Numbered from the stretch's first letter, positions 4,950 through 56,800 are shown. The stretch: DNA of 64,000 nucleotides from GCF_053078305.1 NZ_CP166879.1; one strand, 5' to 3'. Made by a program: numbers and translations. The notes: a model not told the origin generated them from the sequence alone.

Positions 4950-5843
4950 CTACAGCGAAATACAGGTCCCCGCTTCGCCCGCCAGCGTCTCTTCAATTCG
5001 CGATAACGCCCCAATCCACGCGGGTTTACCACGGCTTCTGACATAACCACTCACCGCCGTTACCTTCGGCCCCATCGAACCATCGGCTTTGGCAAATGGC
5101 GCTAACTCATCCGGTGTGGCATGGCGAATGGCACGTTGCTGCGGCGTTCCCCAGTTTTCATATACCGCATCAGCATCGGTGAGGATCACCAGTCCATCTG
5201 CATTAATCTGCTCGGCGAGCAACGCAGCGGCGAGATCTTTATCAATCACCGCTTCACTCCCTGCTCCGTCATCCGTCACAGGCACACCGCCGCCGCCGCT
5301 GCAAATCACCACATGCCCCTCTTTGAGCAACAACTCAATGGCTTCGCTGTCGAGAATTTTACGCGGTTGCGGAGACGCCACCACCCGGCGCAAATATTTA
5401 CCATCACGTTTCATCTGCCAGCCGTAAGCCGCTTCCAGTGCCTCTTGTTCTTCTGGCTGATAAACCGGACCAATAAATTTCTCTGGCTGCAAAAACGCCG
5501 GATCATCAGGCGAAACTTCAATGCGCGTCAGCACCGTCGTGACAGGCGGCATCTGCGGCTGTGCGCTCAAACTCTGCGCCAGCATATAGCCAATCATCCC
5601 CTGACTTTCTGCCACCAGCACATCCAGCGGATACGGTTCTACCTCTTTCCACGCCAGATTCTGCAATGCCAGCAGCCCCACCTGCGGCCCGTTGCCGTGA
5701 ACAATCGCCAGCCGATAAGAACGGGCCAGGCGCGCCAGCGCGGGTACAGCACTGGCGATATTGCGATATTGATTTTCTGCCGTCAGCGCCTCACCGCGCT
5801 GGAGTAAGGCGTTGCCCCCAAGAGCCACAACCAGTGTTTTCAT
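4950..5843 (-). CDS. ybcF: Carbamate kinase-like protein
   Basis: 297 aa amino-acid-kinase fold ([13 protein letters not shown]...); last gene of the fdrA-ylbE-ylbF-ybcF cluster. Confidence 0.92.
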
Positions 5844-6655
5844 GGTTTTCCTTGTAATAATTGTTGGCCAAGCCAGAACCCCAGCAGCGTATCTGCCCCT
5901 GACGTATGCCCCAGCGCCAGCAGCGAATCAATCGCAACAGCGGTACGTTTCGGGCAACTCAGAGCATGAACAAAGTGCAGGAGTGGCGAGGCGAAATATC
6001 CTTGCGCGGCATAACGTAAATAACTGACGCTCACCGCTGTGGTAACGAGTTGAAGATTGTCGGAACAGGCAAAAAACGGGCGACCGGCGCGCGCATCTAA
6101 AGCACCATAATACCAGGCCGCCAGCAGCATTCCGCTCAACGTGTCATCATGACTTGGCGTTAATCCGGGGCCTTTACCCAGCCAGTGCCGCCAGTCGGTC
6201 TTAACGCCATTGAGCGCGGCCTGAAAACAGTGACGAAACTGGCGTAATTCAGCGGGCAGCGGATCGCTTGCCGCCATCGCCAGTGGCCCGAAAAGTCCGG
6301 TTTCCTCCGCGCGTTGCATCCATGCAGCTGCAAGCGGTTGAGGATGCGAAGGCGGCGTAATACGCAGCAAACAATAACGCTGTGGCTGTGTAACCGTGAA
6401 ACGCCCGAGGCGAATCCCTTGAGCCACAACCTGTGGTCGTTCATTGCCGCATAATCCACCGCATAACGCATCGAATTGCGCACGGCGAAGCACCCATCCT
6501 CCGGGGCCGAAACCACTACCCTGACGATGCAGCGTTAACAGTTCGCCGCTTTCCGTCATCAGGTTAATCGCCCGCCGCCACACTCCCGCTAACCGCCAGG
6601 ACTGGCGATAATTCGGTGCGCTACTACTGGCAAGCAGAGGATGGATGATCGTCAT
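5840..6655 (-). CDS. ylbF: DUF2877-type protein YlbF
   Basis: 271 aa from ATG at 6655 ([11 protein letters not shown]...); the track ORF extends to an upstream alternative start that would overlap ylbE. Confidence 0.85.
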
Positions 6656-6665
6656 TGCGCGTTCC

Positions 6666-7925
6666 TCAACCAATCCCCATGCTTTCAGCCAGTGCTTCCA
6701 GCGCCTGTTCAAAACACGCCAGCGGTGCCCGCACGGTGCCTGCGCCAATCTGCCCGATCCCCGCCTCTTTATGGGCAATACCGGTATTGATGAGTGGCGT
6801 AATGCCGGTTTCTACCACGCGACGAATGTCCAGCCCCAGGCACGCGCCCTGAAAATCCCAGCTTGGGATCTGCAACTGCATATTGCGTTCAAGGTAAATT
6901 TCCGCCATCTCTTCAGATACCGCCCTGGCCGCTTCCATGCCACCCGCACCGACAAAGCGCGTTACGCCAGGCGCTGCGATCATTGCCGCACCTCCGATAC
7001 CAAAGGTTTCGGTAATCGCGCTATCGCCCATATCCGGGTTCGCCTGCTCCTGCGAGAAGCCGGTGAAAAACAGACCTTGCGGAGTGTTTACAGGCGCAGT
7101 AAACCAGCGTTCGCCCAGCCCGCTTACCCGAATCCCGAACATATTACCGTTGCGGGTCATTGCCGTGACGATGCTGCCTGCACGGATCATCGCGCCAGCA
7201 TCCATCGCCGCCTTGCAGTAAGCCATCGCGAGGTTGAGGAAGAACTGATCGGTCACGCTGAGGAAATCCATCACTTCCGCGATGTGCTGTTTATCATGAT
7301 CGAGGCGAGCAATTTGTGGGGCCAGCGCACGCATTAACAGTGCTGAGGAAGCAATATTGCGTTGATGGAACTCATCGCCCATCGTAATGCCCTGCGCCAT
7401 CATCGCGGTAAGATCGATACCGCGCTCCATGCGCCCCAGCGCCGCGCTTAATACTGGCATTAACACATCGCGCATCCAGCGATGGCGAGTCAGGACATCT
7501 TCGCCGTAAGCGCCAAAACGCATCACTTTGCCGATACCTTCGTTGAGGTTGCAGTACGCCCGGTTGCCGTCGGTCACGTTCTCGACCACCAGCATCGGCA
7601 TACTGGCAGAAGTAATACCGCCCATTGGCCCGACGGCATTCACATGGTGACAAGGAATGAAGTTCACTTCCCCCTGCTCCAGTATTGCCAGCGCCTGCGC
7701 TTCATCTTTCGCCCAACCTTCGAACAGACATGCGCCCACGCACGCCCCTTTCATGGGTCCGGTCATCTCCTGCCAGCGCATTGGCGGCCCGGCGTGAAGC
7801 AGTGTTTTGCCCGGGTGTAGTTCGCTGATAAGTGAAGAAGCCGGTTGCACATCCAGCCAGTGTGGACGAGCGCGACGAATTTGTTCGATAACCGCAGCAT
7901 TGGCTTGCGCCACTGATGTAAACAT
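6666..7925 (-). CDS. ylbE: DUF1116-family protein YlbE (intact)
   Basis: Uninterrupted 419 aa ORF between fdrA and ylbF. Confidence 0.85.
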
Positions 7926-27151: not shown

Positions 27152-27643
27152 TTACTCTGCACAAGCATCAGGCAATCCAGCTCCAATATTTGTTATAAAA
27201 TAATGCGTAACATTAATTTCACCAACAAAAAAAAGATTTACGCTATCCCCTTGCCCTGGTATTTTACCATATTTACACCACACTTTTTTTGTATCTGGAT
27301 CATTCTTTGATACGATTTTCGCCACTTGTTCCCTGGCCCTCACCGTCAATGTTTTCTTAAACCTCCCCCCATCATCGATTGTTAGGGAAAAATAAGAAAA
27401 AAAATAATCATCTTCTACATTTGTGGATATTGATATATCCACCGCTACGTGCGGAAAAAAATCTGGGAGCCATGTAAAAACTCCATCATTTTCTGGTATT
27501 GCCATATAGTTTATGTAATGCTTACTTACAAGAGATTCATCTTTGTGTAAATAAAGATAAGTAGTCACGCATAAAAAAACAACGATTATAATAGCAAAAA
27601 TAAATATTACCATCTTTGAGATGTTACTTGAGATAGCCAGCAT
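27152..27643 (-). CDS. Putative Rhs immunity protein (membrane-anchored)
   Basis: 163 aa ORF whose ATG overlaps the last codons of rhs; N-terminal TM helix ([22 protein letters not shown]); alternative start at 27613. Confidence 0.6.
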
Positions 27644-30600
27644 CTTGTAAAGCCTTTATCGTTTTTTTATGCTCTGGATTAATATAATCAATACATCTAT
27701 TTGAGCAATCTTGTGTTAATGGACATGTCAACCCATGTTCATTTACAGCCAAGTCTTTTTTATTATCTTCAATCATCTCAGAATGGGATAACTTTACTTT
27801 TCTGCCGTACATACCGAACATATTTAACCCGTAATCTCTAATCTCTTTTTCATAACCCAGCCCTTTCGCCGATCGGCTAACACCAGCGTCATTTAATTTA
27901 GACACTCGACAAAATGCCATACAATGGAAAAATTGATCAGTCCCACCTAAATTTAATCTCTTCATATCATCATAAGTATCAGATAATATATCCCATGCTC
28001 TTTGATGGTTTAGTTGTTCTTTTTTTCGCATTAACGCTACATCTGCAGGACTTAACCCTAATGGATCAATACCATTCACCGGATTCAGCGGATACGCATA
28101 CAGACTCCATCCCCCCGCCAGCCCAATCGGGTCCTGAGTAATATATCGTCCCAGCAACGGATTGTAGTACCGGTTCCGGTTATAATACAGCCCCGACTCC
28201 TCATCATACTGCTGCCCCGGCAGCCGGTACGGCTGGTGCAGGTGATGCGGGTTCTCCTCATTCAGCTGGTTGCCCCATTCATCATACTCCCCGCTCCACG
28301 CCGTATTGCCGTCTTCGCTGATGAGCGCCAGCGGCAGGCCCCGGTGGTCGCAGTGGTAAAGATGAACTTTTCTCGCCGGTGTGTATTCCGGCTCCACCTG
28401 TCTGGCCAGTTGCTCCACCGTCAGCCCGCACTGCGCAAGCCACGCCCGGCTTTCACTGCTCACGCGGTCTGCCCGGATTTCCCCCTCCAGCCTGTCCAGC
28501 AGCCCCACCAGTTCAGCCGGGAACACCACACCGTGGCCGTCTTCGCTCCCTTCCTGCTGCAGCTTCTCCGCCAGGCTGCGGCACTGCGCTTTCTCCCGTT
28601 CACCGTTGTCTGTTTCGATGCGGATGAGCGGCGCGAAGCTCCCCGGCTGGTATACCGTCTGGATACGCGTGGTGTCGGTCTGTACCGTCGTCAGCCGGTC
28701 GCCGTCCCATCCGTACCACGTCACCTCCGGTTTACGCGACAGCGACATCCATCCCGTCAGGTCACGCCCGCGACGCCACACCCGTTTTCCCGTCCGGCGG
28801 CCCAGCGGGTCGTAGAGGTAGCGGCTCTCGACCAGTGGCTCCTCATGCTGTATCCGCGTGTAAAACACCAGCCGGTGCTGGCTGTCGTAGTGGTAGTGGT
28901 GGGTCCGCTCGTCGTCCGTCCGTATCACACCCGTCGGGATGCGGTCCGTCTTCTCCGTCAGCCTGCCGTATTCATCGTAACGGTACAGGTAATGCGCGTC
29001 TTTGGTGATGCGGTTATCCGGCCACGCCGTGAGCGTGCTGTCCGGGTGCAGCTCCGGGTCCGGCAGGCGGTTGCCCGCCGGGTCGGTCGCATACGGGATG
29101 CGGATGTCCAGGTCCGGTGCGAGGGTGCGCACGCTCTCCAGCCTGCCCGTGGCGCTGTAGCCGTATTCCCGCGTCTGCCGGGGGGCGCTGATGCGCACCA
29201 GGTCGCCGTTGTCATTCCACCCGTAGTCACGGTCATATACCAGGCTGTTCAGGTGCTGGCTCTGTAACTGGCCTGCGGGGGTGTATGTGCTGGTCAGTTC
29301 GTATGCGGCATTACTGCCTGCCATGCTGCCGAAGCTGCGCACCGTCTCACGGTGCAGCCTGTCCCGCGTATACTCGACCAGCGGCGTCCCGCCCAGCTTC
29401 ATTCCCGCCAGGTAACCGCTGCCATACGTCAGCCACTCCACCGGCGGCAGGCTGTCCGGCGTGACGCGGTTTGCCAGCCCCTGTTCGTTGTATGCGTGTT
29501 TCGTCTCATGCTGCCACAGCAGTTCCCCCGTCTCCGGGTTCTCCACCGTCTGGCGTTCGCCGGTCAGGCGGCCCTTATCGTCGTAGCCGTAGTGGGCAGC
29601 GACACGGTGGCCTTCACTGAGATGGCTGATGTCTGTCAGCCAGCCGTGGCCGTCATACTGCCACTGCTCTGCCGGTTCACCGTTTACCGTGCGGTGAGTG
29701 ATACGGTCCGATTCATCGTAGTACCAGAGGATGACAAGTCCCTCATCCTCACTCTGTGTGAGTTTTCCGGTCAGGTCATAATGATAACGTTGCGTCCGCC
29801 CGTCAAAGCCGCCCTGCTGTACCAGCCGGTCCAGCGCATCGTAACTGAAGACGCTGTGGCTGCCGTTCTCGTTGGTCAGGCTGATGACACGTCCGGCAGC
29901 ATCGTACTCCATACTGCGCGTCAGCCCGCCCTGCGTGGTGCTGACCGCCTTTCCCCACGCATCGTACTGTGTCTCGCTCCGGTTGCCGTCCGGGGTGATA
30001 ACGGCAGTCAGGTCGCCTGCGGCGTTGTATTCATACCGCGTTTCACGGCCCTGTGCGTCTTTCACCGAGGTTAACCGGCCACGGTTGTCATAGCGGCGGT
30101 AAAGGCTGATGCCTTCCTCGCGGTGGACCGCCGTCATCTGGCCGAAGCGGTCGTATTCATAACGGGTCTGGTAGCCCGAGCAGTCGGTGAACGCCAGCAA
30201 CTGACCGTAGCGGCTCCACGTCATCTGCCGGGTGCTGCCCGTCGCATCTGTTGTTGTGGCCGGTAATTCACTGTGCGCATCATCATAGCGGTAGCGTACT
30301 GTCTCCCCGCTGCGCGATGTCTCCGTTACCAGCCTGTCCAGTTCATCATATGCCCGGCGGCTCTCCAGCCCGTCCGGGGACACCACCGCCGTCAGCTGGT
30401 TCCCGTCGTTATAGTAAAATTTCGTCTCCCGCCCGTCCGGTGTGGTGATGTCCGTGATGTCGCCTGACACCACATTCAGACCGTACTCTGTCCGCCGTCC
30501 CGCCGCGTCCGTCTGCGCCGTGAGCCTTCCTGCCGCGTCATACCCGCTGTGCGTGATGCTGCCGTCCGCCTGTTCCTTCATCACCACCCGTTTCAGCCCG

Positions 30601-31838
30601 GCCTCGCCTTCTGTATGCAGCACCTCACGCCGGTTCAGGCTGTCTGTGACGGTGATGCGGTCCTGCTCATACTGGTAGCAGTAACTCAGGCCTGCCGGGT
30701 TTAGTTGCTCCACCACCCGCCCCGCATCGTCGTAGCGGTAGCGCATCTCCGGCCTTCCCGCGTAACGGTGCGCCACCATCCGCCCGGGGTGCTGCGCGTC
30801 ATATGTGAAAGCGCGCACCTGCGTATTGCTGCGGTCATATACCGCCAGCAGTTCACCGGCCTCCGTATACGTGTACCGCGCCAGTGGCGCACCGGGCAGA
30901 TTCTCCGGGTATGCCGGGTCGTGCATCAGCCACACCGCCGAAAGGCGGATACCCCTGTCGGGGCCGTATTCGGTACCGGGCAGTGTGTCGGGGAACGCTG
31001 AGTCTGAAAGAGGGCGGGGGGTGTCAGGGGAAGATAAGGAAGCGGTGTGCTGTTTACGGGCCTCTTCCGCCCGCTGCGCCTGCGTGGTCAGCACCAGACG
31101 GAACTCCCGCCCGGCACCGTCCGTCACGCCGGTGATGTCCCCGGCCAGGTCGCCTGCGGCCTCACGCCGGTACACCAGCGTCCGCCCGAAGCGGTCCGCC
31201 ATCCCGGTAAGCACCCGGTACGGCGGCAGCGGCGCTGGCAGTACGTCCTCAGCACCCGGCACCCGCTCAGACCACCCCAGTATCCACCACGGCCCCTGTG
31301 CGCTGTTGGTCGCCAGGTAAAGATGCGGGCTTAACCGGATATCCGGCGGCAGCGACGCCCACAGCCGTGCCAGCGTATGGCCGTCCGGCTGTGCTGCCTT
31401 ACCACCGCGCACCAGCCACAGGGACTCGCTGCGGCTGTACACCGCCTCACCCGGCAGCAGCGGCTCAAAGTGAATGCTCCGTCCGCCGTCGTTGTCGTTG
31501 AGTACCAGTGCATCATCGCGTAGCTGTAAGCGGATATCAGAAGGCGCTTTCCAGCCGGGGCCAAAAATCCCCACCGGTGCAGGCGTCTTCGTCCGGTAGC
31601 TGCTGTAGGTGCGGGAGAGAATGAACGGCAGCGGGCCGGGCAGCGCAAGGTCCGTCTCGCCGGGCAGCACCTTCGCCCCCAGCAGCGGATTTACCGGGTT
31701 GCCCGAAGTCATCCCGCCCGGACACACCGAGCACGACACGCCAGTTGGCGCGCCAATTCTTACACCTGCCGAACCCTGGACAATGGGACCGCCATACTGA
31801 GTCATATCTCCCTGACGCGCCGCTGGTTTTCCGCTCAT
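27624..31838 (-). CDS. rhsD: Rhs-family polymorphic toxin (PAAR N-terminus, YD-repeat shell, C-terminal toxin)
   Basis: 1404 aa with PAAR-like N-terminus ([25 protein letters not shown]), many YD/RHS repeats, and DPxGL boundary ([10 protein letters not shown]) before a roughly 150 aa C-terminal tip. Gene symbol is by synteny only; the tip may differ from K-12. Confidence 0.92.
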
Positions 31839-44507: not shown

Positions 44508-45679
44508 CGTTCGCGCAACGCCTCCTGTGCTTTGTTAAAGGGTTTCAACAGATAATCCAGCACGCTTTTTTTGCCGGTGCGGATATCGACCGTCGCCACC
44601 ATACCGGGGAATATCGGAAACTGCTGTTTGCTTTTGTTTTCCAGATGGTTGCTGAAAGTGCGAATGTACACCCGATAGTAATAAACATCGCGCCGCACTT
44701 CATCCTGCACGGTGTCTGGTGATATCACCGCTACTTCTCCCGGCAGACCGCCGTAGATGGAGTAATCGTAGGCAGTTATTTTCACCAGCGATTTTTGCCC
44801 CGGATGGATAAACGCCACATCGCGCGGGGAGATTTTTGCCTCAATCAGCAGTTGCTCATCCAGCGGCACGATGGTCATCAGTTTACCACCGGGGGCGATG
44901 ACGCCGCCAACCGTGGTGACGTCAATATCCTGAACAATGCCACGAACTGGCGCAGTAAAGTTGAGCCTGGTGAGGGAGTCTTCACGCCCACGGATCACCG
45001 AACGCTGGGTTTCCACTTCCGCATTGGCTTTCGCTAACTCTTCCCGCGCCTGAACGTAGTATTGCGTGCGCACGTCGCTGAGTTTGTTTTCCAGTTCATT
45101 GGCCTGGCGTTGCAGGCGCAGCACTTCGACGCTGCTCGCCGCCCCCTGTTTCACCAGCGGCTGGGTCATCGCCAGTTCACGGTTGACCAGGCTAATCCCC
45201 TGCGTCAGCCCGGTGGTGGCTTTGTTCAACCCGTCGCGGCGAGTGTTGTACAACGCCGTTTCCGACTCGATAAGTTCGGGGAATTTATTCAGTTCGTCAG
45301 GGAAGACCAACGGTTTATTGCTCACTTCCGCCCGCAGCCGCGCCGAGGTTGCCAGCGCAGCGTACAGCCGCGACATCGCTTCCTGGACGTCGGATTCCGT
45401 TTTAGTGCGGTTAAGCTGCGCCAGCGGCTGGCCCTGTTCGACAATATCGCCAACTTTCACGTTCAGATGATACAGAATTCCGCCTTCCAGCGACTGCACC
45501 ACCTGTTCGCGCCCGGAAGGTTCTACCGTGCCGCTGCCGGTGGTGACTTCATCAAGCTGGAAGTACCACGCCCAGCCGAGAAAACAGAGCAGCATCACAG
45601 CGGTAACGCGTACCGCCAGCGCCGAACGCGGCAAGCGGGGTTCAGTCAGGCCACGGTTGTATTGCAGTTGTCCGTTCAT
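44504..45679 (-). CDS. Type I secretion periplasmic adaptor (HlyD family membrane fusion protein)
   Basis: 391 aa: cytoplasmic N-terminus, one TM helix ([14 protein letters not shown]), long coiled-coil and lipoyl/beta-barrel regions; ATGA-coupled to the upstream ABC gene. Confidence 0.88.
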
Positions 45680-47838
45680 GCAGCAGACCCCTTATTCTTC
45701 TCCTGCAACACCACCCGTCGCGCCGTGGGTTCGCTCTGTTCACGCAAAATGGCCTCTTTCGCGCCATCCATCACAATCCGCCCCTGATCCATCACGATTA
45801 TCCTGTCCACCAGCTGCAGCATCGCCGTGCGGTGAGTGGCGATGACCAGCGTGCGATGTCCAATCCACTGTTTCAGATGTTCGATTAAATGCGCTTCTGC
45901 CATTTCGTCCAGCGAGGCGCTGGGTTCGTCGAGCAGCACGATATTGGGTTGAGAGATGAGTAGCCGCGCCAGCAACAGCGTTTGTCGCTGACCGCCAGAG
46001 AGGCCAAATCCTCCTTCCTGAATCATGTAGTTGAGACCGTTTTTCTGCTTCTGCACAAAGGGCAGCGCCCCGCTGAGGGTTAACGCGCGTTCGATATCTT
46101 CATCGCTGGCCTCCGGCATCCCCATGGTGAGGTTTTCCCGCAGCGAACCAAAGAACAGTCGCCCGGTCTGGCTGAGTAGCCCCATGTCTCGCCGCAGATC
46201 TGCCGGATCAAGCTGCCCGATACTGATGTTATCCAGCAACACCTGCCCCTGCTGGGCGATACGCATTCCAGCGAGCATTTGCAGTAGCGTCGATTTACCC
46301 GCGCCGTTGCGCCCGAGAATGGCGATTTTCTCACCAGCCTGAATGTTGAGTTTGCCAATCGCTACATCGGCAATCTTCTCTTCTTCGTCGTAATAAAACA
46401 CCGCGTTGCTGAACTGATAATTACCGTGCAGCACCGCTTTATGCACCAGTTTGCCGTGTTCCGGCTGATCCACCGGGCGCTTCATCAGTTCATCCAGGCC
46501 GTTACGCGCCACCTTTGCCTGCTGCCAGCGCGAGAGCACGCCGGATATCTGCGACAGCGGCGCGATGGTGCGCGAAGCCAGGATCGTCGTCCCGACCAGC
46601 GCGCCGGTGGTCATGTCGCCGTTCATCACCATAAAGCAGCCCACCAACAGCACCACGACGTAGACGATGGATTGCACTTCCTGGGTCCAGGTGAGCAGTA
46701 GCCCGGTGAGAAAACGTTGCTTCATGCTGATGGACGAGGCCACATCGTTGGTGTGATTCCACTGATTCTGGAAACGCTGTTCGGCGCGCAGCAGTTTAAT
46801 ATCTTCAATCGACTGCACGGCTTCGACAAGCGTAGCGTTACGTACCGCCGACTCGCGCATCCCTTCGTTCGCCAGCCGCGCCAGCGGGCGTTGTACCAGC
46901 AGGCCGGGGATCACCAGCAACGGCAGCGCCAGTAAAACCACCAGCACCAGCCAGCCGCCAATCATCCACAAAATAAAGACAAACAGCAGGAAGAACGGCA
47001 GATCCGCCACCGCGCCGATGGTGGTGGACGTAATAAGCTCCCGCACTGATTCCAGTTCGCGGATCTGCGAGATAAACGATCCGGTGGATTTCGATCGCAC
47101 GTTGTTTTTCAGCCGTAGCGCATGACCAAAAACGCGATCCGAAATACGCAGGTCTGCCCGCTTGCCGATCACATCAGATAGATGCGTACGCACCATGCGC
47201 ATACAGAACTCAAACAGGATCGCCATCATCACCCCGGCGAACAGCACCCACAGAGTCGGGTACGATTGCGCCGGAACCACCCGATCGTAAACCTGCATCG
47301 AGAAAATCATCGCCGCCAGCGCCAGCACGTTCGCCACCAGTGACGCCAGCATAATATCGCCGTAGCGCCGCCAGTCTTTTAGCGAAAGACTCCAGAACCA
47401 GTTCGCCTGATACGGGCGAATATAGTCATCTACCCGCGCGTCAGGGATGGCGCTGAGCGGGCGCAGTAGCGCCAGTTCAACGATTTTATCCTCGACATCC
47501 GCGACGTTAAGCGTGGTTTCCAGCCCTTCGTCACCGCTGAACTGAACGCTGATATTGTCATGATTGTCGCGACGGGTGATCACGCCAATCTGCTGATTAT
47601 CAAACACCGCGATCAGCGGCAGACGCCAGGGGTTAAGCGAATCGGCGGAAAACTCCACCAGCCGTAACCCCATTCCCAACTGCCGCGCCATGTCGGTGAG
47701 CAACTCTTCCCGCTTACTGTCGCGCTCCCAGTTGACGGTCGCGCGCACATTCTCCTGAGAAAAATCGAGCCGATAATAGCGCGCCACGGCGATCATCGCC
47801 TCCAGCCAGGCTTCCACGGACTGGGCATTTTTTTTCAT
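45676..47838 (-). CDS. Type I secretion ABC exporter (HlyB type, N-terminal C39-like domain, TMD and NBD)
   Basis: 720 aa: N-terminal roughly 130 aa C39-like domain with no candidate catalytic Cys, six-helix TMD, Walker A (GRNGAGKST), signature (LSGGQRQ), Walker B (LLDEPSASLD); ATG 3 nt after the adhesin stop. Confidence 0.9.
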   Translation of the reverse strand: MKKNAQSVEAWLEAMIAVARYYRLDFSQENVRATVNWERDSKREELLTDMARQLGMGLRLVEFSADSLNPWRLPLIAVFDNQQIGVITRRDNHDNISVQFSGDEGLETTLNVADVEDKIVELALLRPLSAIPDARVDDYIRPYQANWFWSLSLKDWRRYGDIMLASLVANVLALAAMIFSMQVYDRVVPAQSYPTLWVLFAGVMMAILFEFCMRMVRTHLSDVIGKRADLRISDRVFGHALRLKNNVRSKSTGSFISQIRELESVRELITSTTIGAVADLPFFLLFVFILWMIGGWLVLVVLLALPLLVIPGLLVQRPLARLANEGMRESAVRNATLVEAVQSIEDIKLLRAEQRFQNQWNHTNDVASSISMKQRFLTGLLLTWTQEVQSIVYVVVLLVGCFMVMNGDMTTGALVGTTILASRTIAPLSQISGVLSRWQQAKVARNGLDELMKRPVDQPEHGKLVHKAVLHGNYQFSNAVFYYDEEEKIADVAIGKLNIQAGEKIAILGRNGAGKSTLLQMLAGMRIAQQGQVLLDNISIGQLDPADLRRDMGLLSQTGRLFFGSLRENLTMGMPEASDEDIERALTLSGALPFVQKQKNGLNYMIQEGGFGLSGGQRQTLLLARLLISQPNIVLLDEPSASLDEMAEAHLIEHLKQWIGHRTLVIATHRTAMLQLVDRIIVMDQGRIVMDGAKEAILREQSEPTARRVVLQEKNKGSAA

Positions 47839-47841
47839 TAT

Positions 47842-50800
47842 CTACACCACCATCAACTGATGATTCGCCAGCAAAGTGGCGAGGTCGGTGTGCACGCCCG
47901 TCAGCGTGACCACGTTAGTTGTCGCAAAAGTGCCGCCCGTGCCGTCGCGGTCGATCTGCACGATGGTGTCGCTGCCGCTCTGGGTGACTTTGACAAAGTC
48001 ACCGATGTTTCCGGCCTGCGCATCCAGCGTCGCCACGCCGTTGACATAGCTGGCTTTGCCGTTTCCGGTGTAGCCGCTGCCCTGCAACAACTCGCGGATA
48101 TCAATGCGATCGGTGTCGGCAGTGCCTTCCCAGGTGCCTACCGTAAAGCCATTCACCACATCCGAACCGTTGCCGCCAGTGGCGTCGCTGGCGTTGAGCA
48201 GTTTATAGAGCAAGGTGTCGTGGCCGCCGTTGCCGATGTTGAGCGTGTCGTTGCCGCCGCGCCCTTCCAGTTGGTTATCGCCGCTGCTGCCGGTCAGAGT
48301 GTCGTTAAAATTCGAGCCGGAAATACCTTCGATATTGGTAAATGTCGAGGTGTTAAAGCCGGTGGCCTGCGCGGCAGTGCTGCTTAAGTTCGCGGTCACG
48401 CCCACCGTCGAAAGCCGGAAATCAACCACGTCCATCCCGCCGTTCGCCAGCCACGTTCCGGTGCCGGAGCTGTACACCCAGCCGCCGGAACCGTCGTAAG
48501 TGTCGGTGCCTGCGGTGGCAAAGAAGGTGTCGTTATAGCCCGTACCAACGAACTTGCCGTTGTTGCTCGCGGTGCCCGCTTCAGCGCTGAGATCGTAAGC
48601 GTGAGTGGCATCGGTAGCCTGCAAACCACCCCAGCTGGTGTTGACCGTCTGGTCGATATTGCTGGCGGTGGTGCCGGTGGATTTGATCAGCACCGCGTTG
48701 TAGGTTTCTCCGGCATTCAGCCCGTAGAAGTTGACCAGCGCCGAGGTGTCGTTAACCCCCATACCCGACTGCGGGTTGATGATTTGCGTGGCGACCAGCA
48801 CTCCCGCCGAGTTGTACAGCTTCACGGTATTGCCGTAATAGACGTTAATGCCGTTGGGATCGGTGATGCGCAGGTGTAGCGAAGTGCCGTAGCTCACCGT
48901 GTTGGTGTTGCGGATCAGGAACACGCTGCCCGACTGTTTGGTCACCAGTACATCAACCGCGCCGTCCCAGTCGTAATCCATTGCCGCCACGCCGCTGGTG
49001 GTACCGCTCTGGCTGCCGCCGAGGGCCGATTGCGTCCAGTTGCTGGCACCACCAACGTTGGTGTAAAGATACGATTGTCCGGTCTGGGCGATACGGGCGA
49101 TATCCATCAGGCCGTCATGGTTCCAGTCCACCGCCAGGCTAAACTGGCTGGCGTAGGTGGTTGCCGTTGCGCCCACCGCCACCGGGCTACCCAGTACGCC
49201 GTTGGTGTTGAATAACAGCGAGCCGTAGTTAGCTCTTCCCTGGCTGGCGGGCAGGAAGAGATCCATATCGCCGTCACCATCGAAATCGGCCCAGGTCATG
49301 GAAACGCTGCTGCTCATAGCGCCACTGCCCGCCCCGCTCAAGAAGGTATTGGTGGTGTTCTGCCCCCAGACAAACGTCCCATTCCCCTGGTTGATGAGCG
49401 AAGATAGCGTGTAATAGTTGTTCAGGTTGTAGGTGTGCTGAACCAGGTCGATCCTGCCGTCATTGTTCAGATCGACGCCAGAACCTTCGTTGAGCGAAAG
49501 ATACCCCGTCACCGCCCCGCCCACCGTGGCGCTACCGCCGCTGTTCGACGTGGTGGAGTTACCTACCAGCGTACCTGCGTTGTTCCACAGGAAGGTGTTG
49601 GAGTCCGGCCCGCCCGCGTCGCCAATCCAGAAGTCGAGATAGCCGTCGCCCTCTTTATCAAATGCCACAATCGAGCCGTACCACGTCAGGGTGCCGACGG
49701 TGACCTGAATAGCGCTGGAAAAGGTGCCGTCGCCGTTATTGGTAAAGCCGTTGATATAGCCTGTACCGTAGTCATCACGGGTGATAAACAGATCGCCCGT
49801 GCCGTTACGGTCGTAATCGGCGATGGAGCTGGTGGCGTAGTTGTTGCCGCTCTGATACAGCGTCAGCGCGGTCTTCGACCAGGTGAGTGGGTCAGTCGAT
49901 TGCATTACCTGCTGGTTTGCCAGCACCGTCCACATCCCGTGCGAGTCGAGGCCGTAGGTCAGCCCCCAGGCGGTGGTTTTGCTGGCGGTAGTCCAGGTCG
50001 GTGTGTAATCAATCGCCGCGTTAACCGTCACCGTGCCGTTGCTAATATTGGCGTTATTGCCGTTACCCGCCGAACTTTTTACCTGCGCAGTAACGGTATA
50101 GGCGGTCGCGGAAACTGTCAGCGCATCGGTATCCGGCAACTGTACATACCAGGTGTTGTGCGCCGGATCGACCACTACCGCGCCGCCCGGTTCAGAGGTG
50201 TAGGTTTTGCCGTTGATCACCACTTCAACATACTGCCCACTGGCAAGCGCGGCGGTGATCACCCCGCTGATAATCGGCGTAGTATCGCGCGTGGTCTGGC
50301 TGGTGATTTGCGCCAGCGTGGTCGGAATAGAGGTATCGACCGTCAGGACAAAATCACTGGAGGAGGTGATATTCCCCGCCAAATCCACCACTCGCGCGCT
50401 GTAGGTATAGGCACCGCTCACCAGCCCGCTGTCGCTGTAGGTCCAGTTCAGAGCGCCGACCATCGTCACCGCCCCTAACAGCAGCCCGTTACGGTAGAGG
50501 TAAACCACTTCACCGCTGGCAAGCGGCGCGGAAAGTACACCGTTCAGCAGCGGCGTAGTGTCGTCGGTGGCCTGCGAACTGCTTAATGTCCCCTGCCGCT
50601 GCCCGACATCATCGGTATACGACACAATGGTTGGCGTGGCGGTAGGGTTAATCGTATCGACCACCACCGTTTTCGATACCACCGGGCCGGTGTTCCCCGC
50701 CAGATCCAGCACCCGCACCTGATAAACGTAGCTGCCGTCGGTCAGCGTGCGGCTATCGGTGTAAGTCCACTGCGTGCCGTTGGTGGTAAGCGTGATCCAG

Positions 50801-53800
50801 GTCGCGCCGCTATCAAGGCTAATCTGCGCCACTTCGCCGCTGGCAAGCCCCGCTCCCAGCGAACCGGTCAGCGTGAGCGTGGTATCGCTGGTGATAAAGT
50901 CAGTTGCCGAACTCCCCGTGTCGGTGCTAATGCTGGCGATGGTCAACACCTGCGCCGGGTTAACGGTGTCAATCTGCGCCGACTGGCTGCCGGTTGCGCC
51001 AACGTTGCCCGCCAGATCGACCACCCGCACCTGCCAGGTGGTGGTGCCGTTGGTGAGGGTTCGTCCGTCAACGTAACTCCAGTTCAGGCCGTCTGCTGCT
51101 AGCGTCACGTTCACCCAGGTTGCGCCGTTGTCGGTACTGATTTGTGCGAACTCATTAGCGCCGAGCGCCGCGCCCAACACGCCGCGCACGGTAAGCGTGG
51201 TGTCGCTGGTAATAAAATCGCTGCTGCTGGTTCCGGTGTCATCGCTGATGCCGGTAATGGTGATACTTTTCGCCGCTTCCGGGCTGGTGGTATCGACCAC
51301 CACGTTTTGCGTTGCGGTCTGCCCAACGTTCCCCGCCAGATCCACCACCCGCACCGTGTAGTTCCAGGTGCCGTCAGTCAGTGTGCGACCATCGGCATAG
51401 CTCCAGCTGGTGCCGATAACGGTTAACGTAGTCCAGGTGACGCCGCCGTCGAGGCTGATTTGCGCCCGTTCATCGGCGGCAAGCGCCGCGCCGAGCGTGC
51501 CGCGCACGGTCAGCGTGGTGTCGCGTGTAACAAAATCGCTGCTGCTTAACCCGGTGTCATCGCTGATGCTCGCAATGGCGATGGTTTTGCTCGCCAGCGG
51601 CGCGGTGGTATCCACAGTGACTATCTGGCTGGCGGTCGCGCCGATATTTCCGGCGGTGTCGATCACCCGCACCTGGTAGTTGTAGTTGCCATCGGTCAGC
51701 GTACGCCCGTCAAGATAGCTCCAGGTCAAACCGCTTACCGAAAGATTCTGCCAGGTGGTGCCGCCATCAATGCTGATTTGCGCGAACTCACCGGCAGAAA
51801 GCGTCGCCCCCAGCGTGCCGCTCACCGCAAGCGTCGTGTCGCTGGTGACAAAATCGTTAGTGATCAAGCCCGTATCGGTGGTGATCGCGCTGATGGCGAT
51901 GGTTTTCACCGCGGGATCTGGCGCGGTAGTGTCGATCACCACATTCTGGCTGTCGGTCGCGCCAACGTTGCCCGCTGCGTCAATCACCCGCACCTGATAG
52001 AGATAGTTGCCATCGGTCAGCGTGCGGCTGTCGTTATAGCGCCAGGTCGTGCCGGTAACGGTAAGCGTGGTCCAGGTTGTGCCGCCGTCGATACTTATTT
52101 GCGCCGTCTCGTTACTGGCAAGCGCGGCGGTGAGCGAGCCGTTGACCACTACCGGACTGACGCTGGTGATAAAGTCGCTGGCGCTAAGGCCAGTGTCGGC
52201 TTGCAGGGAATCGATATTAATGCCCATCGCCGGAGCGCTGAGATCGACGGTAATGGTGTGATTACTGCTACCGGTGTTGCCAATGGCATTGCTCACCGAG
52301 GCGTTAATCACGTAAGCATTGCCGTCCGCCAGCGCGGTAACATCGGCGCTGCCTAGGGTGTAGCTCCAGCTACCGCCGGTCTGTACCGTGGTGGTGTAGG
52401 TTTTGCCGTTTAAGGTCAGGGTCAGCGTCTGTCCGACCGGCGCGGTGGTGGTGCCGCTGATCACCAGCGACGAGCCGTGTTCTGCTGCATTCACCACATC
52501 ATCGCCCGCAAAGGTGTTGATGGTGACGGTGGGCACGTCGCCGTTCAGCGTCACGCCACGGCTGGCGCTGCCGGGGTTTCCGGCCTGATCGCTAACCGTC
52601 GCGCTAATGGTGTAGCTGCCGTCGCTTAATCCAGCAAACTGCTGCGCCGGAATAAACACCGACCAGCTTCCGCCGCTGCCGACCGTTGTGGTCCAGGTTT
52701 GCCCGTTAAAGGTAACGGTCACCGTCTGGCCCACTTCGGCGGTGGTGGTGCCGCTGATGGTCTGCCCGGCAAGCTGCTCGGCGTTGTTGATAATATCGTC
52801 ACCCGCCACCGTGGCGATGGTGACCGTTGGCGCAACGGTATCGACGGTCAGGGCGTGCGTGGTTTGACCGGGGTTACCGGCACGATCGTTCACGCTGGCG
52901 GTAATGGTCTGCGCACCCTGCCCGAGCGATGCCAGATCCGCCGCAGGCACGTTAAGCGCCCAGGTGCCATTGGCGGCAACCGTGGCGGTATAGGTTTTGC
53001 CGCCAAAGATCACGGTGACCGTCTGCCCTACTTCCGCGCTGGTCGAGCCGTTAAGGGTTAACGGCTGCTGCTGTTCGGCGGCGTTGAGTCGGTCGTCCGT
53101 CGAAACGGTGTTAATACTGATAACCGGCGCGGTGAGATCCACCGTCACGCTGCGTGAGGCCGTGGCGCTGTTTCCGGCACTGTCCTGAGCGGAGGCGCTA
53201 ACCGTGTAGCTGGTGCCATCCGCCAGTGCCGCGACGTCTGCCGCCGGCACATTCACGCTCCAGCTCCCGTTGCTCTGAATGGCAGCGCTGTAGCCTTTGC
53301 CGTTAAGCAACACGGTCACCACTGTACCTGTCGCGAAATTAGTGCCAGTGCCGCTCAGGGTCAGCGCACTGCCCGCTTCGGCGGCGTTAATAATATTATC
53401 GCCGCTGATGGTGCTGACCGAGAGCGACACCGCCGCCGTATTGACCTGCACGTTGTGCGTCTGCGTGCTGCTGTTGCCTGCGCTATCGGTGATGGTGGCG
53501 CTGATGGTCACCGTGCCGTCTGCAAGGCCGGAAATCACGCTGGCAGGCACGCCAACGCTCCAGTTGCCGCTGGCATCGGTGCTGGTGACATACTGCTGCC
53601 CGGCGATGGTCACCACCAGGCGGTCGCCTGCGACCGCGCCCGTGGCGGTGCCGCTGATAATCTGCGCCTGAGTGTGTTCGACGTTGTTAATCACATCATC
53701 GCCCGCCACGGTGTTAAAGCTGATCACCGGCGCGGTGGTATCGACGGTCACACCTTTGCTGGCGCTGCCAGGGTTACCCGCCAGATCGCTGACCGTAGCG

Positions 53801-56800
53801 GTCAGGGTGTAGCCGTTATTGGCCAGTGCGGTTAAGTCGCTGGCGGGCAGCGTTAAGCTCCAACTGCCGTCTGCCTGCACCGTGGTCTGGTAGTTAGTGC
53901 CGTTAAGCGTGACGGTGAGCGTCTGCCCGGTTTGCGCCGTGCTGGTGCCGGACACCGTTACGCCCGCCGCCGCTTCGCTGGCGTTGATGATGTTATCGCT
54001 GGCAATGGTGTTGATGGTGACCGTTGGCGCGGCGCTATCGACGCTGTATTCGTGCGTTGCCGTGGCGCTGTTGCCGTTGACGTTAGTCACCCGCACCTGG
54101 GCGCTGGCATCGCCGTCACGCAGCGCCGCCAAATCCGCAGCCGGAACGGTGGTGCTCCAGCTACCGTTAGCCGCCACCGTGGAGGTGTAGGTTTTGCCGC
54201 CAAAGGTGACGGTGACGGTTTGCCCCGCTTCGACGCCGGACGTGCTGCCGGAGAGCATTAGCGCCGCGCCTTTTTCGGCGGCGTTAATCACATCATCAGG
54301 GGTAATAGCGTTAATGCTGATGGCAACGGTAGTGAGATCAACAGTCAGCGGATGGGTAATGCTGGTTTGCGTTCCGGCACTGTTCGCGCCGCTAACGGTA
54401 ATATTCAGCGTTCCCGCAGGCCAGTTACTGACATCCGCCGCCGGAACGCCGACGCTCCAGCTGCCGTTCGCCAGCACCGTGGCGGCGTAAGTTTGGTTGT
54501 TAATCACCACCGTCAACGCCGTGCCTGCGGCAAAGCCGGAGCTGCTGCCGGTGATCACCTGCGCCTGAGCGTGTTCGATGATATTGACCACATCATCACC
54601 CGCGACGGTATCCACCCGCAGGCCAGGCAGACTGGCATCGATGGTGATATCGCGCGTGCCGCTACCGGTGTTGCCAACGGCGTTGGTCACCGAGGCATTA
54701 ACCGTTAACTCACCGTTACCCAGCGCCTGCCAGTCGGCGGCAGGTACGCTCACATTCCAGCTTAAATCAGCCTGGACGGTGGCGGTGTAAGTTTTACCGC
54801 CCAGTTCAACGGTGACGGTGCTGCCCGCCGCCGCCCCGGTGACCTGGCCGCTGATAGTTTGCGCGCTGCCTGCCTCTGAAGCGTTGATAATATCGTCCGT
54901 CGCCACCGGATTAATGGTGATGCCCGGCAGCGCGGTATTAACCTGCACGTTATGGCTGGCGGTGCTGCTGTTACCCTGAGCATTGGTGACGCTCGCCGTC
55001 ACGCTGTAGGTCGCTTCGCCCAGCGCACTGACTGCCGAGGCGGGCACAGTAACGCTCCAGTTGCCGGAGGCGTCGGTAGTGGCGCTGTAGTTTTGTCCGT
55101 TCAGCGTGACGGTGATCGCCGTACCCGCAGGCTGATCGCTGGTGCCAGAAAGCGCCAGATCAGATCCTTTTTCCGTCGCGTTGATCACATCATCGCCCGC
55201 GATGGTGTTGATGCTAATCACTGGCGCGCTGAGGCTGACGGTCACGGTGCGGCTGGCGTCGTCGCTGTTGCCTGCCCGATCGCTGACGCTGGCGGTGATG
55301 GTCTGTGCGCCGCTACCCAGCGCCGCAACATCCGCCGCCGGTACGCCGACGCTCCAGTTACCGGAGGCATCCAGCGTGGTGGTGTAGGTTTTGCCATTGA
55401 GCACAACGCTCACCACATCGCCCGCTTCCCCGCCCGTGCTGGTACCGGAGATCACCAGCGCCTGGGCGTGTTCGGCGTCGTTGATGATGTCATCGCCCGC
55501 CACGGTGTTAATGGTGAGAACCGGCGCGGTGGTATCTACCGCCAGATTGTGGCTGGCGCTGCCGGGGTTGCCCGCTTTGTCGTTGACCGTGGCGCTGACG
55601 GTGTAATTGCTTGCGGTCAGCGCGCCTAAGGCTGAAGTGGGAACGCTGACGCTCCAGCTACCGTCCGCCTGCACAGTGCCGGTGTAGGTTGCGCCGTTAA
55701 GGGTGACGGTCACCGTCTGCCCGGTTTCGGCGGTGCTGGTGCCGCTGATGGTGAGCGGGCTTCCTGCCTCTGCGGCGTTAAGGATGTCATCGCTGGCGAT
55801 GGTGTTAATGGTGAGCGTCGGCGCGCTGGCGTCAACGCTATACGCATGGGTCGCCGAGGCGCTGTTGCCGCTCGCGCTGCTGACGCTGGCCTGCACGTTC
55901 GCCGCGCCGTCTGGCAGAGCTGCCAGATCCGCCGCCGGAACCGTTACGCTCCAGCTTCCGTTGGCGGCGACGATTGCGGTGTAGGTTTTGCCGCCAAAAG
56001 TGACGGTGACGGTTTGCCCGCTTTCAATCCCGCTGGTGCTGCCGGAGAGGGTCAGGCCAGTGCCTTTTTCGGCAGCGTTAATTACGTCGTCGCTGGCAAC
56101 GGTGTTGATGCTGATTGCCACCGCCGTTAAATCGACGGTGAACGGATGGCTGACGCTGACCGGGTTTCCGGCGCTGCTCTGTCCTGCCACGTCAACGGTT
56201 AACGCCCCCGCAGGCCAGGCGCTGACGTTTGCCGCCGGAATGCCGACGCTCCAGCTCCCGTCCGCCTGTACCGTGGCGGAATACGCCACACTGTTGATGG
56301 TAACCGTCAGCACAGCACCTGCATTCAGGCCGCTACTGCCGCCGGTGATCACCTGCGCCTGTCCGTGTTCAATGCTGTTGACGATATCATCGCCCGCTAC
56401 CGTATCCACCCGCAGCCCCGGCAGGTTGGCATCAATGGTGATATCCCGCGTGCCGCTGCCCGTATTGCCATTAGCGTTGGTGACCGAGGCGGTAATGGTC
56501 AAATCACCATTGCCCAACGCCTGGAGATCGGCTGCCGGAACGCTGATACTCCAGCTTAAATCGGGCTGAACCTCCGCTGTGTAAGTGTTCCCGCCCAGCG
56601 TCACGGTGACCGTATCGCCAGCGGCGGCGCGAGTCACCACCCCGCTGATGGTTTGATCGGCCCCCGCTTCGGCGGCGTTGATAATATCGTCGCCTGCCAC
56701 GGTGTTGATGGTGACGTCCGGCAGGCCGCTGTCGACCAGTAAATTCGCCTGGCTGCTGGCGGTGTTGCCTGCTGCACTGGTGGCGCTGGCGCTGACCGTA

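Follow-up and report, generated by a model that had tools for sequence, protein, structure and literature searches.

The window analysed here, a stretch of 64,000 nucleotides from NZ_CP166879.1 (GCF_053078305.1), carries on its minus strand the 3' part of a giant adhesin gene. The open reading frame (ORF) is listed as 47842-63981 (-), contains no stop in all 5,385 codons within the window except the terminal one, and continues beyond the window end. A megablast search with the terminal 4.4-kb region identified the gene as Escherichia coli siiEA, annotated "BapA-related adhesin SiiEA", and located the region, once per chromosome and with identities of 90-99.7%, in 958 of the 5,426 complete E. 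coli genomes; in PS10-3 the full gene comprises 20,778 nt and encodes 6,925 aa. A preliminary description made from this DNA alone had placed a switch of architecture in the last roughly 1,470 residues. The in-frame fragment 47842-52251 on the minus strand (the fragment) translates to 1,469 aa plus stop and carries every motif quoted there; its start was given correctly, and its end moves by one base from 52250, while translations of the region on the plus strand or in the other frame of the minus strand are rich in stops. SiiEA itself is known already, as are its name and locus and the part it plays in adherence, and standard hidden Markov models (HMMs) recover the domains that had been noted. 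What we add is a useful refinement, namely a propeller resembling that of CRTAC1, followed by a beta-sandwich, as a testable candidate for the binding tip. Within the window the adhesin is composed of the following parts, from the upstream end to the stop codon:

52252..64000, minus strand: upstream stalk of the same ORF, about 39 Ca_tandemer-type immunoglobulin (Ig)-like repeats of about 100 aa each (period analysis, NF033510)
50644..52251, minus strand: five close copies of a second Ig-like type, 104-111 aa, fragment residues 1-536 (MAFFT alignment, HMM, Pfam)
50323..50643, minus strand: sixth module, divergent, of the same type, fragment residues 537-643 (five-copy HMM, alignment)
50002..50322, minus strand: seventh Ig-like module, strongly divergent, linking stalk to head, fragment residues 644-750 (alignment)
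48907..50001, minus strand: predicted seven-bladed FG-GAP/VCBS beta-propeller, fragment residues 751-1115 (FG-GAP_3 HMM, calcium loops, AlphaFold2)
48637..48906, minus strand: predicted beta-sandwich after the propeller, at the UnbV/ASPIC position of the CRTAC1 family, fragment residues 1116-1205
48163..48636, minus strand: repeats-in-toxin (RTX) region, predicted to fold as a short beta-roll that an insert interrupts, fragment residues 1206-1363 (HemolysinCabind, AlphaFold2)
47842..48162, minus strand: predicted type I secretion C-terminal target domain (VCA0849 subclass), fragment residues 1364-1469 plus stop at 47842-47844 (TIGR03661)

The six DxDxDG-like loops on which the preliminary description had based its propeller are all present, as Dx[DNE]x[DN]G motifs starting at fragment residues 812, 865, 927, 989, 1042 and 1092 with a spacing of 50-62 aa, and the motif does not occur outside the head anywhere in the 5,385 aa. 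When the 360-aa region was shuffled 20,000 times with its composition preserved, no shuffle contained more than three such motifs. From their sequence, the six loops are predicted to bind calcium. The Pfam model FG-GAP_3 (PF13517) matches the region three times (E 3e-9, 9e-8 and 3e-7), and the classical FG-GAP model PF01839 reaches E 0.014 only. Homologues of fragment residues 770-1290 were collected and 39 of them were aligned as input for AlphaFold2, which returned a model of the head with a mean predicted local distance difference test (pLDDT) score of 82 and a predicted template modelling (pTM) score of 0.89. In the model 27 strands are arranged in seven groups of four, followed by a small beta-sandwich and the start of the beta-roll. 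In blocks of high confidence, each calcium motif sits in the loop joining two successive strand groups, after the final strand of one and before the initial strand of the other, which gives one loop between consecutive predicted blades. The top structural matches of the model are likewise propellers.

Among known structures, CRTAC1 (cartilage acidic protein 1; murine crystal structure 9etn) resembles the model far more closely than any other, and the match extends over the domain that follows the propeller. Sequence identity to CRTAC1 is only 16%, and in contrast to CRTAC1 the SiiEA head lacks an epidermal growth factor-like domain and lies within the tip of a 6,900-aa secreted fibre, with RTX repeats after it. 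The more distant sequence homologues of the head are CRTAC1-family or "enediyne biosynthesis E4" proteins with PF07593 UnbV_ASPIC, whose HFGLG motif aligns with a FYGL motif of the adhesin group, and a profile-profile comparison of the whole module with the CRTAC1 family gives E 6e-24, collinear through the sandwich. The preliminary description had called the region FG-GAP/integrin-alpha-like. The FG-GAP propeller is borne out by HMMs and AlphaFold2; integrin alpha turns out to be the more distant relation, since CRTAC1 is far closer and includes the domain after the propeller. The propeller of integrin alpha is likewise of the FG-GAP type, has seven blades and Dx[DN]xDG calcium hairpins, and is found by Foldseek (E ~1e-7, probability 1.0), but its match is much weaker than that of CRTAC1 (TM 0.25-0.39). 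The integrin alpha propeller carries three or four calcium loops, whereas SiiEA has six, and SiiEA has no beta-subunit partner and neither thigh nor calf domains. The distant homologues named "enediyne biosynthesis protein E4 / UnbV", which share the layout of propeller plus UnbV_ASPIC, could be taken to mean that the module is an enzyme or a small-molecule-handling domain. We regard this as very unlikely: the enediyne annotation is a name without a tested activity, the module is placed here at the tip of a secreted fibre, and the invariant and near-invariant columns are D, G and N, mostly in the calcium loops, none of them of catalytic type, with the UnbV-motif glycine G408 as the exception.

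Downstream of the head, the nonapeptides that had been recognised in the sequence (GRGGNDTL and GNGGHDTL units) are present as part of an RTX region with three strict and about five degenerate repeats. The strict ones, GSSGDNQLE, GRGGNDTLN and GNGGHDTLL, lie at residues 1321-1348 with the degenerate units upstream, and Pfam HemolysinCabind matches the region with E 2e-4. AlphaFold2 models the last 265 aa with a pLDDT of 84 and a pTM of 0.84, with short strands at a spacing of about nine residues, and a Foldseek search with this model retrieved RTX beta-roll proteins exclusively (serralysin, PrtC, CyaA RTX blocks and AlgE R-modules; E ~3e-7). The protein closes with the tail LLANHQLMVV, as had been noted, and the proposed secretion signal corresponds to TIGR03661 (T1SS_VCA0849, NCBIfam), which scores 33.4 bits against a cutoff of 17.6 over fragment residues 1364-1466 and is predicted to be a non-cleaved type I secretion signal. 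The extreme C-terminus (window 47845-47880, minus strand) is nearly invariant, consisting of TDLATLLANHQ followed by two to four hydrophobic residues. The TDLATLLANHQ motif is conserved in 18 of 18 aligned homologues, with L256, L257, N259 and Q261 invariant in homologue alignment A2, and the homologues sharing this C-terminus are only 41-66% identical overall. The tail may be the part of the signal that is read by a LapB-type transporter. Taken together, the domain scans proposed in the preliminary description matched FG-GAP_3 three times, HemolysinCabind, Big_13 four times and TIGR03661, structure prediction yielded both the propeller and the beta-roll, and no result contradicted the proposed architecture.

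The adhesin is directly followed by two genes of a type I secretion system (T1SS), separated from the adhesin stop codon by three bases and overlapping each other by 4 nt; the two genes are annotated accordingly in PS10-3 and Sakai (RefSeq):

45676..47838, minus strand: type I secretion ABC permease/ATPase of LssB/LapB type (TIGR03375, 838 bits, cutoff 693)
44504..45679, minus strand: HlyD-family periplasmic adaptor of the same T1SS (TIGR01843, 328 bits, cutoff 209)

With both scores above the curated cutoffs, these genes 3' of the adhesin represent a dedicated LapB-type secretion system. The gene order in PS10-3 is TolC-family gene, siiEA, T1SS ABC gene, HlyD gene and cueR, and O157:H7 Sakai is arranged likewise, with ECs0540-ECs0544 between ybaT and cueR. 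The TolC-family gene, which precedes siiEA in PS10-3 and Sakai, falls outside the window. RTX repeats next to a type I secretion system, together with weak matches to the CyaA RTX domain in a PDB sequence search (E 0.002-0.008), might suggest a pore-forming RTX toxin of the HlyA/CyaA kind, and a 2025 paper indeed names genes rtxA28 and rtxB28 and speaks of "RTX toxins" (PMC12758282). However, the CyaA matches are confined to the nonapeptide block, the rest of the protein being Ig-like repeats and propeller, no hlyC/rtxC-type acyltransferase gene is annotated in the PS10-3 or Sakai locus, and Pfam returned no toxin-domain match. Because acyltransferase gene and toxin domain are missing, a pore-forming domain included, and the body of the protein consists of Ig repeats, a toxin role is unsupported; we consider it extremely improbable and rejected it.

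The preliminary description counted six or seven C-terminal modules of a different repeat type; the alignment gives seven, made up of five close copies, a sixth and a seventh. The five copies share the consensus ISxDTGxSxxDFxTxD ... QVRVxDxAGN ... VDTTxP. An HMM was built from them with modules six and seven excluded. It scores 161-172 bits on its own copies, as expected by construction, 42 bits (E 5e-15) on the sixth module and 3.8 bits on the seventh. The upstream repeats reach no more than 11 bits, yet they align in register. NCBIfam NF033510 (Ca_tandemer) shows the converse picture, with 920 and 892 bits per 1,000 aa of upstream stalk (10 stretches each) and about 90 bits on single upstream repeats, as against 84 bits in total over five stretches of the C-terminal fragment, whose best stretch, residues 636-730, falls largely on the seventh module. 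The best self-identity period is 100 or 299 aa upstream and 106 aa in residues 3901-4500. Pfam Big_13 is matched by both repeat types, four times in the C-terminal fragment (E 3e-13 to 8e-6), and the C-terminal type also matches BIg50-52 of Salmonella SiiE (PDB 2yn3; E 9e-8). On account of the low upstream HMM scores, the in-register alignment, the shared Big_13 match and the SiiE match, the C-terminal repeats are, at the level of sequence, a second subfamily within the same Big_13 superfamily rather than an unrelated fold; the claim of a second repeat type thus stands as a distinct subfamily by HMM and is narrowed in this respect. As a separate observation on the stalk (52252-64000, minus strand), a super-period of 299 aa beats the 100-aa period in most windows of the analysis. 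Its strength suggests that the unit of recent duplication was three Ig domains.

As the N-terminus of the gene lies outside the window, it was read on a full-length orthologue (locus L001) that is 99.7% identical over the 4.4-kb query. Its N-terminus matches PF22783 BapA_N (E 8e-19), and the protein scores above the cutoffs of NF033677 and of NF047714 (adhesin_SiiEA). A TAAG motif is located at residues ~96-99 of this full-length SiiEA (L001 40029-40778, minus strand), just after BapA_N; TAAG is the consensus LapG cleavage site of LapA-like adhesins. It is followed, at residues ~130-153, by a hydrophobic stretch rich in Gly and Ala, FPWGWLAGAAVGGGALGALLASGG. Neither lapG nor lapD is annotated within the 44-kb locus, and the rest of the genome was not searched for them.

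These features can be compared with the class of LapA/BapA-like RTX adhesins, which includes Pseudomonas fluorescens LapA, Salmonella BapA, M. primoryensis MpIBP, Vibrio cholerae FrhA and an A. hydrophila RTX adhesin. SiiEA has in common with them an N-terminal retention or prefix module, a long Ig-like extender stiffened by Ca2+, non-repeat domains directly before a short RTX roll, a C-terminal secretion signal, and a dedicated LapB-type system with an ABC transporter as well as membrane-fusion and outer-membrane proteins. Of the defining features of the class, the Ig-like array, RTX roll, secretion domain and secretion genes were all found, and the BapA prefix was found on the orthologue L001. 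Salmonella SiiE, encoded on Salmonella pathogenicity island 4 and the source of the siiEA gene name, is likewise a giant type I-secreted Ig-repeat adhesin. SiiEA differs from it in having a BapA-type N-terminus, a propeller head and RTX repeats, and no siiA/siiB-like accessory genes are annotated in the siiEA locus, only the TolC-like, ABC and HlyD genes. Locus type and N-terminus thus set SiiEA apart from the SiiE family, and it is the Ig modules alone that resemble SiiE. SiiEA is probably an RTX adhesin with an Ig stalk, a CRTAC1-like propeller-sandwich tip, an RTX roll and LapB-type export.

By analogy with the established model for RTX adhesins, the ABC transporter would recognise the C-terminal domain and the chain would leave the cell unfolded, C-terminus first, through an ABC/HlyD/TolC-like channel. 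Outside the cell Ca2+ would fold first the beta-roll and next the six-site propeller head, and would then stiffen the Ig stalk, while the N-terminal BapA-prefix module would keep the protein plugged in the outer-membrane channel. Export with the C-terminus leading and retention by the N-terminus would therefore place the head at the far tip, where propeller and sandwich could form the part that contacts a ligand, about 5,000-6,900 stalk residues from the cell. The distal two-domain module is positioned where ligand-binding domains occur in the LapA/BapA class. As far as the available parts of the literature describe them, non-repeat domains at this position bind ligand in characterised RTX adhesins, the ligand-binding domains of other members being sugar-binding, peptide-binding, carbohydrate-binding-module, von Willebrand factor A or ice-binding domains. 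The limited set of literature searched contains no description of a propeller, FG-GAP, VCBS or CRTAC1 domain in an RTX adhesin.

The counterpart of the siiEA locus in O157:H7 Sakai is O-island 28 (OI-28), and its adhesin, encoded at the same chromosomal locus (ybaT - TolC-like - adhesin - ABC - HlyD - cueR), belongs with the window gene at the level of orthologues. Deletion of OI-28 or of any one of its genes lowers adherence to Caco-2 cells, seen at 3 h, and colonisation of mice; the locus is activated by RstA, and Ca2+ promotes its effect on adherence (PMC12758282). That paper mentions Ig-like and RTX domains only, and the words FG-GAP, propeller and VCBS are absent from it (PMC12758282). 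From fragment residue ~266 up to the C-terminal end, Sakai and the window are ~99% identical. The 106-aa repeat occurs one more time in the window allele than in the O157:H7 allele. A single in-frame stop, at codon 1462, divides the Sakai gene, whereas the window ORF is open throughout the part contained in the window; strains such as PS10-3 and PapM-32-1 have an intact siiEA. When window 50644-52251 (minus strand) was aligned to the O157:H7 allele (L003 22414-26820), the first ~260 residues came out shifted by one repeat. Between the window and O157 alleles we counted 77 synonymous and 16 non-synonymous differences, corresponding to a dN/dS of 0.065 overall and 0.067 in the propeller; the C-terminal module is under purifying selection.

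We scanned 1.84 billion cluster representatives in full with the 455-aa propeller-sandwich module, which gave 9,966 matches at E <= 1e-3, 1,601 at E <= 1e-10 and 112 at E <= 1e-30. Among the 56 listed matches that cover at least about 85% of the query, 46 have 257-294 residues after the head (264 in SiiEA), in proteins of 700-4,900 aa. Named relatives occur in Enterobacter hormaechei, Huaxiibacter, E. fergusonii, Pseudomonas zeae, Acinetobacter and Diaphorobacter. Three heads that could be placed on contigs (Diaphorobacter, Enterobacter) come after giant ORFs with BapA_N/Big_6/Big_13 domains. Homologues of 600-900 aa had looked like free-standing propeller-RTX proteins, an idea that we discarded for the three placed cases: these are C-terminal pieces of giant adhesin genes fragmented by ORF splits, insertion sequence (IS) insertion or the end of a contig. 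On the Enterobacter hormaechei contig (L004 8702-9930), an IS transposase gene is located between a stalk ORF (Big_6/Big_13) exceeding 4,562 aa and the ORF with the homologous head, which indicates that this adhesin was disrupted by the insertion.

On balance we lean, by a modest margin, towards the propeller-sandwich as the ligand-binding domain, by analogy with the domains at this position in other adhesins. A calcium-dependent ligand-binding head, as the preliminary description had suggested, would fit the general architecture of RTX adhesins. Several points weigh against the reading of the protein as a whole. That the propeller binds a ligand is something we infer by analogy; the structures of the head and the C-terminus are both AlphaFold2 predictions; the blade count was read from the string of secondary structure and from similarity to folds with seven blades rather than from coordinates; and the TM-scores of the beta-roll matches are low (0.26-0.37) despite good E-values. 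The assignment of the sandwich to UnbV/ASPIC comes from structure comparison and whole-module profile alignment alone. In hhalign the isolated 93-aa sandwich gave E 0.094, which is not significant, and the Pfam model PF07593 UnbV_ASPIC and the NCBIfam CRTAC1 models did not match the query even at a permissive E-value. UnbV_ASPIC was accordingly rejected as a call from sequence alone, and for the same two reasons we call the modelled head structurally CRTAC1-like without assigning it to the CRTAC1 family. Furthermore, O157:H7 carries the in-frame stop in its adhesin gene, so the published phenotype may not stem from an intact, surface-retained adhesin. Finally, in the single functional study adhesion is ascribed to the Ig-like repeats, and constructs with two Ig-like copies partly complemented, with retention of the head unspecified (PMC12758282).

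These last results could also mean that the propeller-sandwich is mainly a calcium-driven folding and stabilising unit, a large extracellular "stopper" that would help to pull the chain out and cap the stalk while the Ig repeats touch the targets. The position of the six calcium loops, directly upstream of the RTX roll as a known folding nucleus, would suit such a function. However, RTX roll and Ig linkers already provide calcium-dependent folding in adhesins that have no propeller, and a conserved two-domain module of 455 aa, with a dN/dS of ~0.07 and recurring as a cassette in 46 cluster representatives, exceeds the needs of a cap. Since the head content of the two-copy constructs is left open in the paper, and non-repeat domains at this position bind ligand elsewhere, we judge the folding unit to be an unlikely explanation.

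Assuming that the head does bind, its target might belong to bacteria or to the matrix (exopolysaccharide, for instance, or a second SiiEA molecule), and the protein might serve aggregation or biofilm formation in the manner of Salmonella BapA rather than act as an adhesin for a host receptor. N-terminus and NCBI name group SiiEA with BapA, which is described as a biofilm protein, and homologous heads are found in soil and water genera without a gut host (Diaphorobacter, Pseudomonas zeae, Acinetobacter). Against this stands the loss of 3 h Caco-2 adherence and mouse colonisation in OI-28 mutants (PMC12758282), and we consider it somewhat unlikely as the principal role, although the two roles are not mutually exclusive. 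Our leading guess for the ligand is a glycan or protein of the host or of mucus.

We tentatively propose, with slightly less than even confidence, that the CRTAC1-like propeller and sandwich, together with the RTX/secretion block of ~260 aa, could constitute a previously undescribed class of ligand-binding head in RTX adhesins, found in E. coli including enterohaemorrhagic E. coli (EHEC) O157:H7, in Enterobacter, Acinetobacter and Pseudomonas, and in Comamonadaceae. In E. coli such a head could provide the calcium-dependent target specificity behind OI-28-dependent early adherence. This discrete and well-predicted pair of domains, 455 residues in length, stands out as the candidate binding tip of an adhesin that EHEC needs for early adherence. 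It offers a defined fragment for glycan or mucin screening and for blocking ligands or antibodies, a strategy already pursued for other RTX adhesins, and it links a widespread bacterial cassette to CRTAC1, an extracellular protein of vertebrates.

Further genes surround the adhesin operon. The start of cueR (44100-44507, minus strand) overlaps the end of the HlyD gene by 4 nt (window 44504-44507), so that the gene of the copper regulator directly adjoins the adhesin/secretion operon at its end. A complete RHS element core protein gene lies about 16 kb away from the operon (window 27624-31838, minus strand; NF041261, 2,734 bits); at this site Sakai has rhsD and PS10-3 has no annotated rhs gene. 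An ORF of 600 aa at window 41586-43388 (plus strand) has only weak matches of coiled-coil type (Rad50/SMC) and begins with TTG, so its start is possibly over-extended. The equivalent position in PS10-3 and Sakai is annotated as "YadA-like family protein" or "adhesin", and a second adhesin gene thus appears to adjoin the island.

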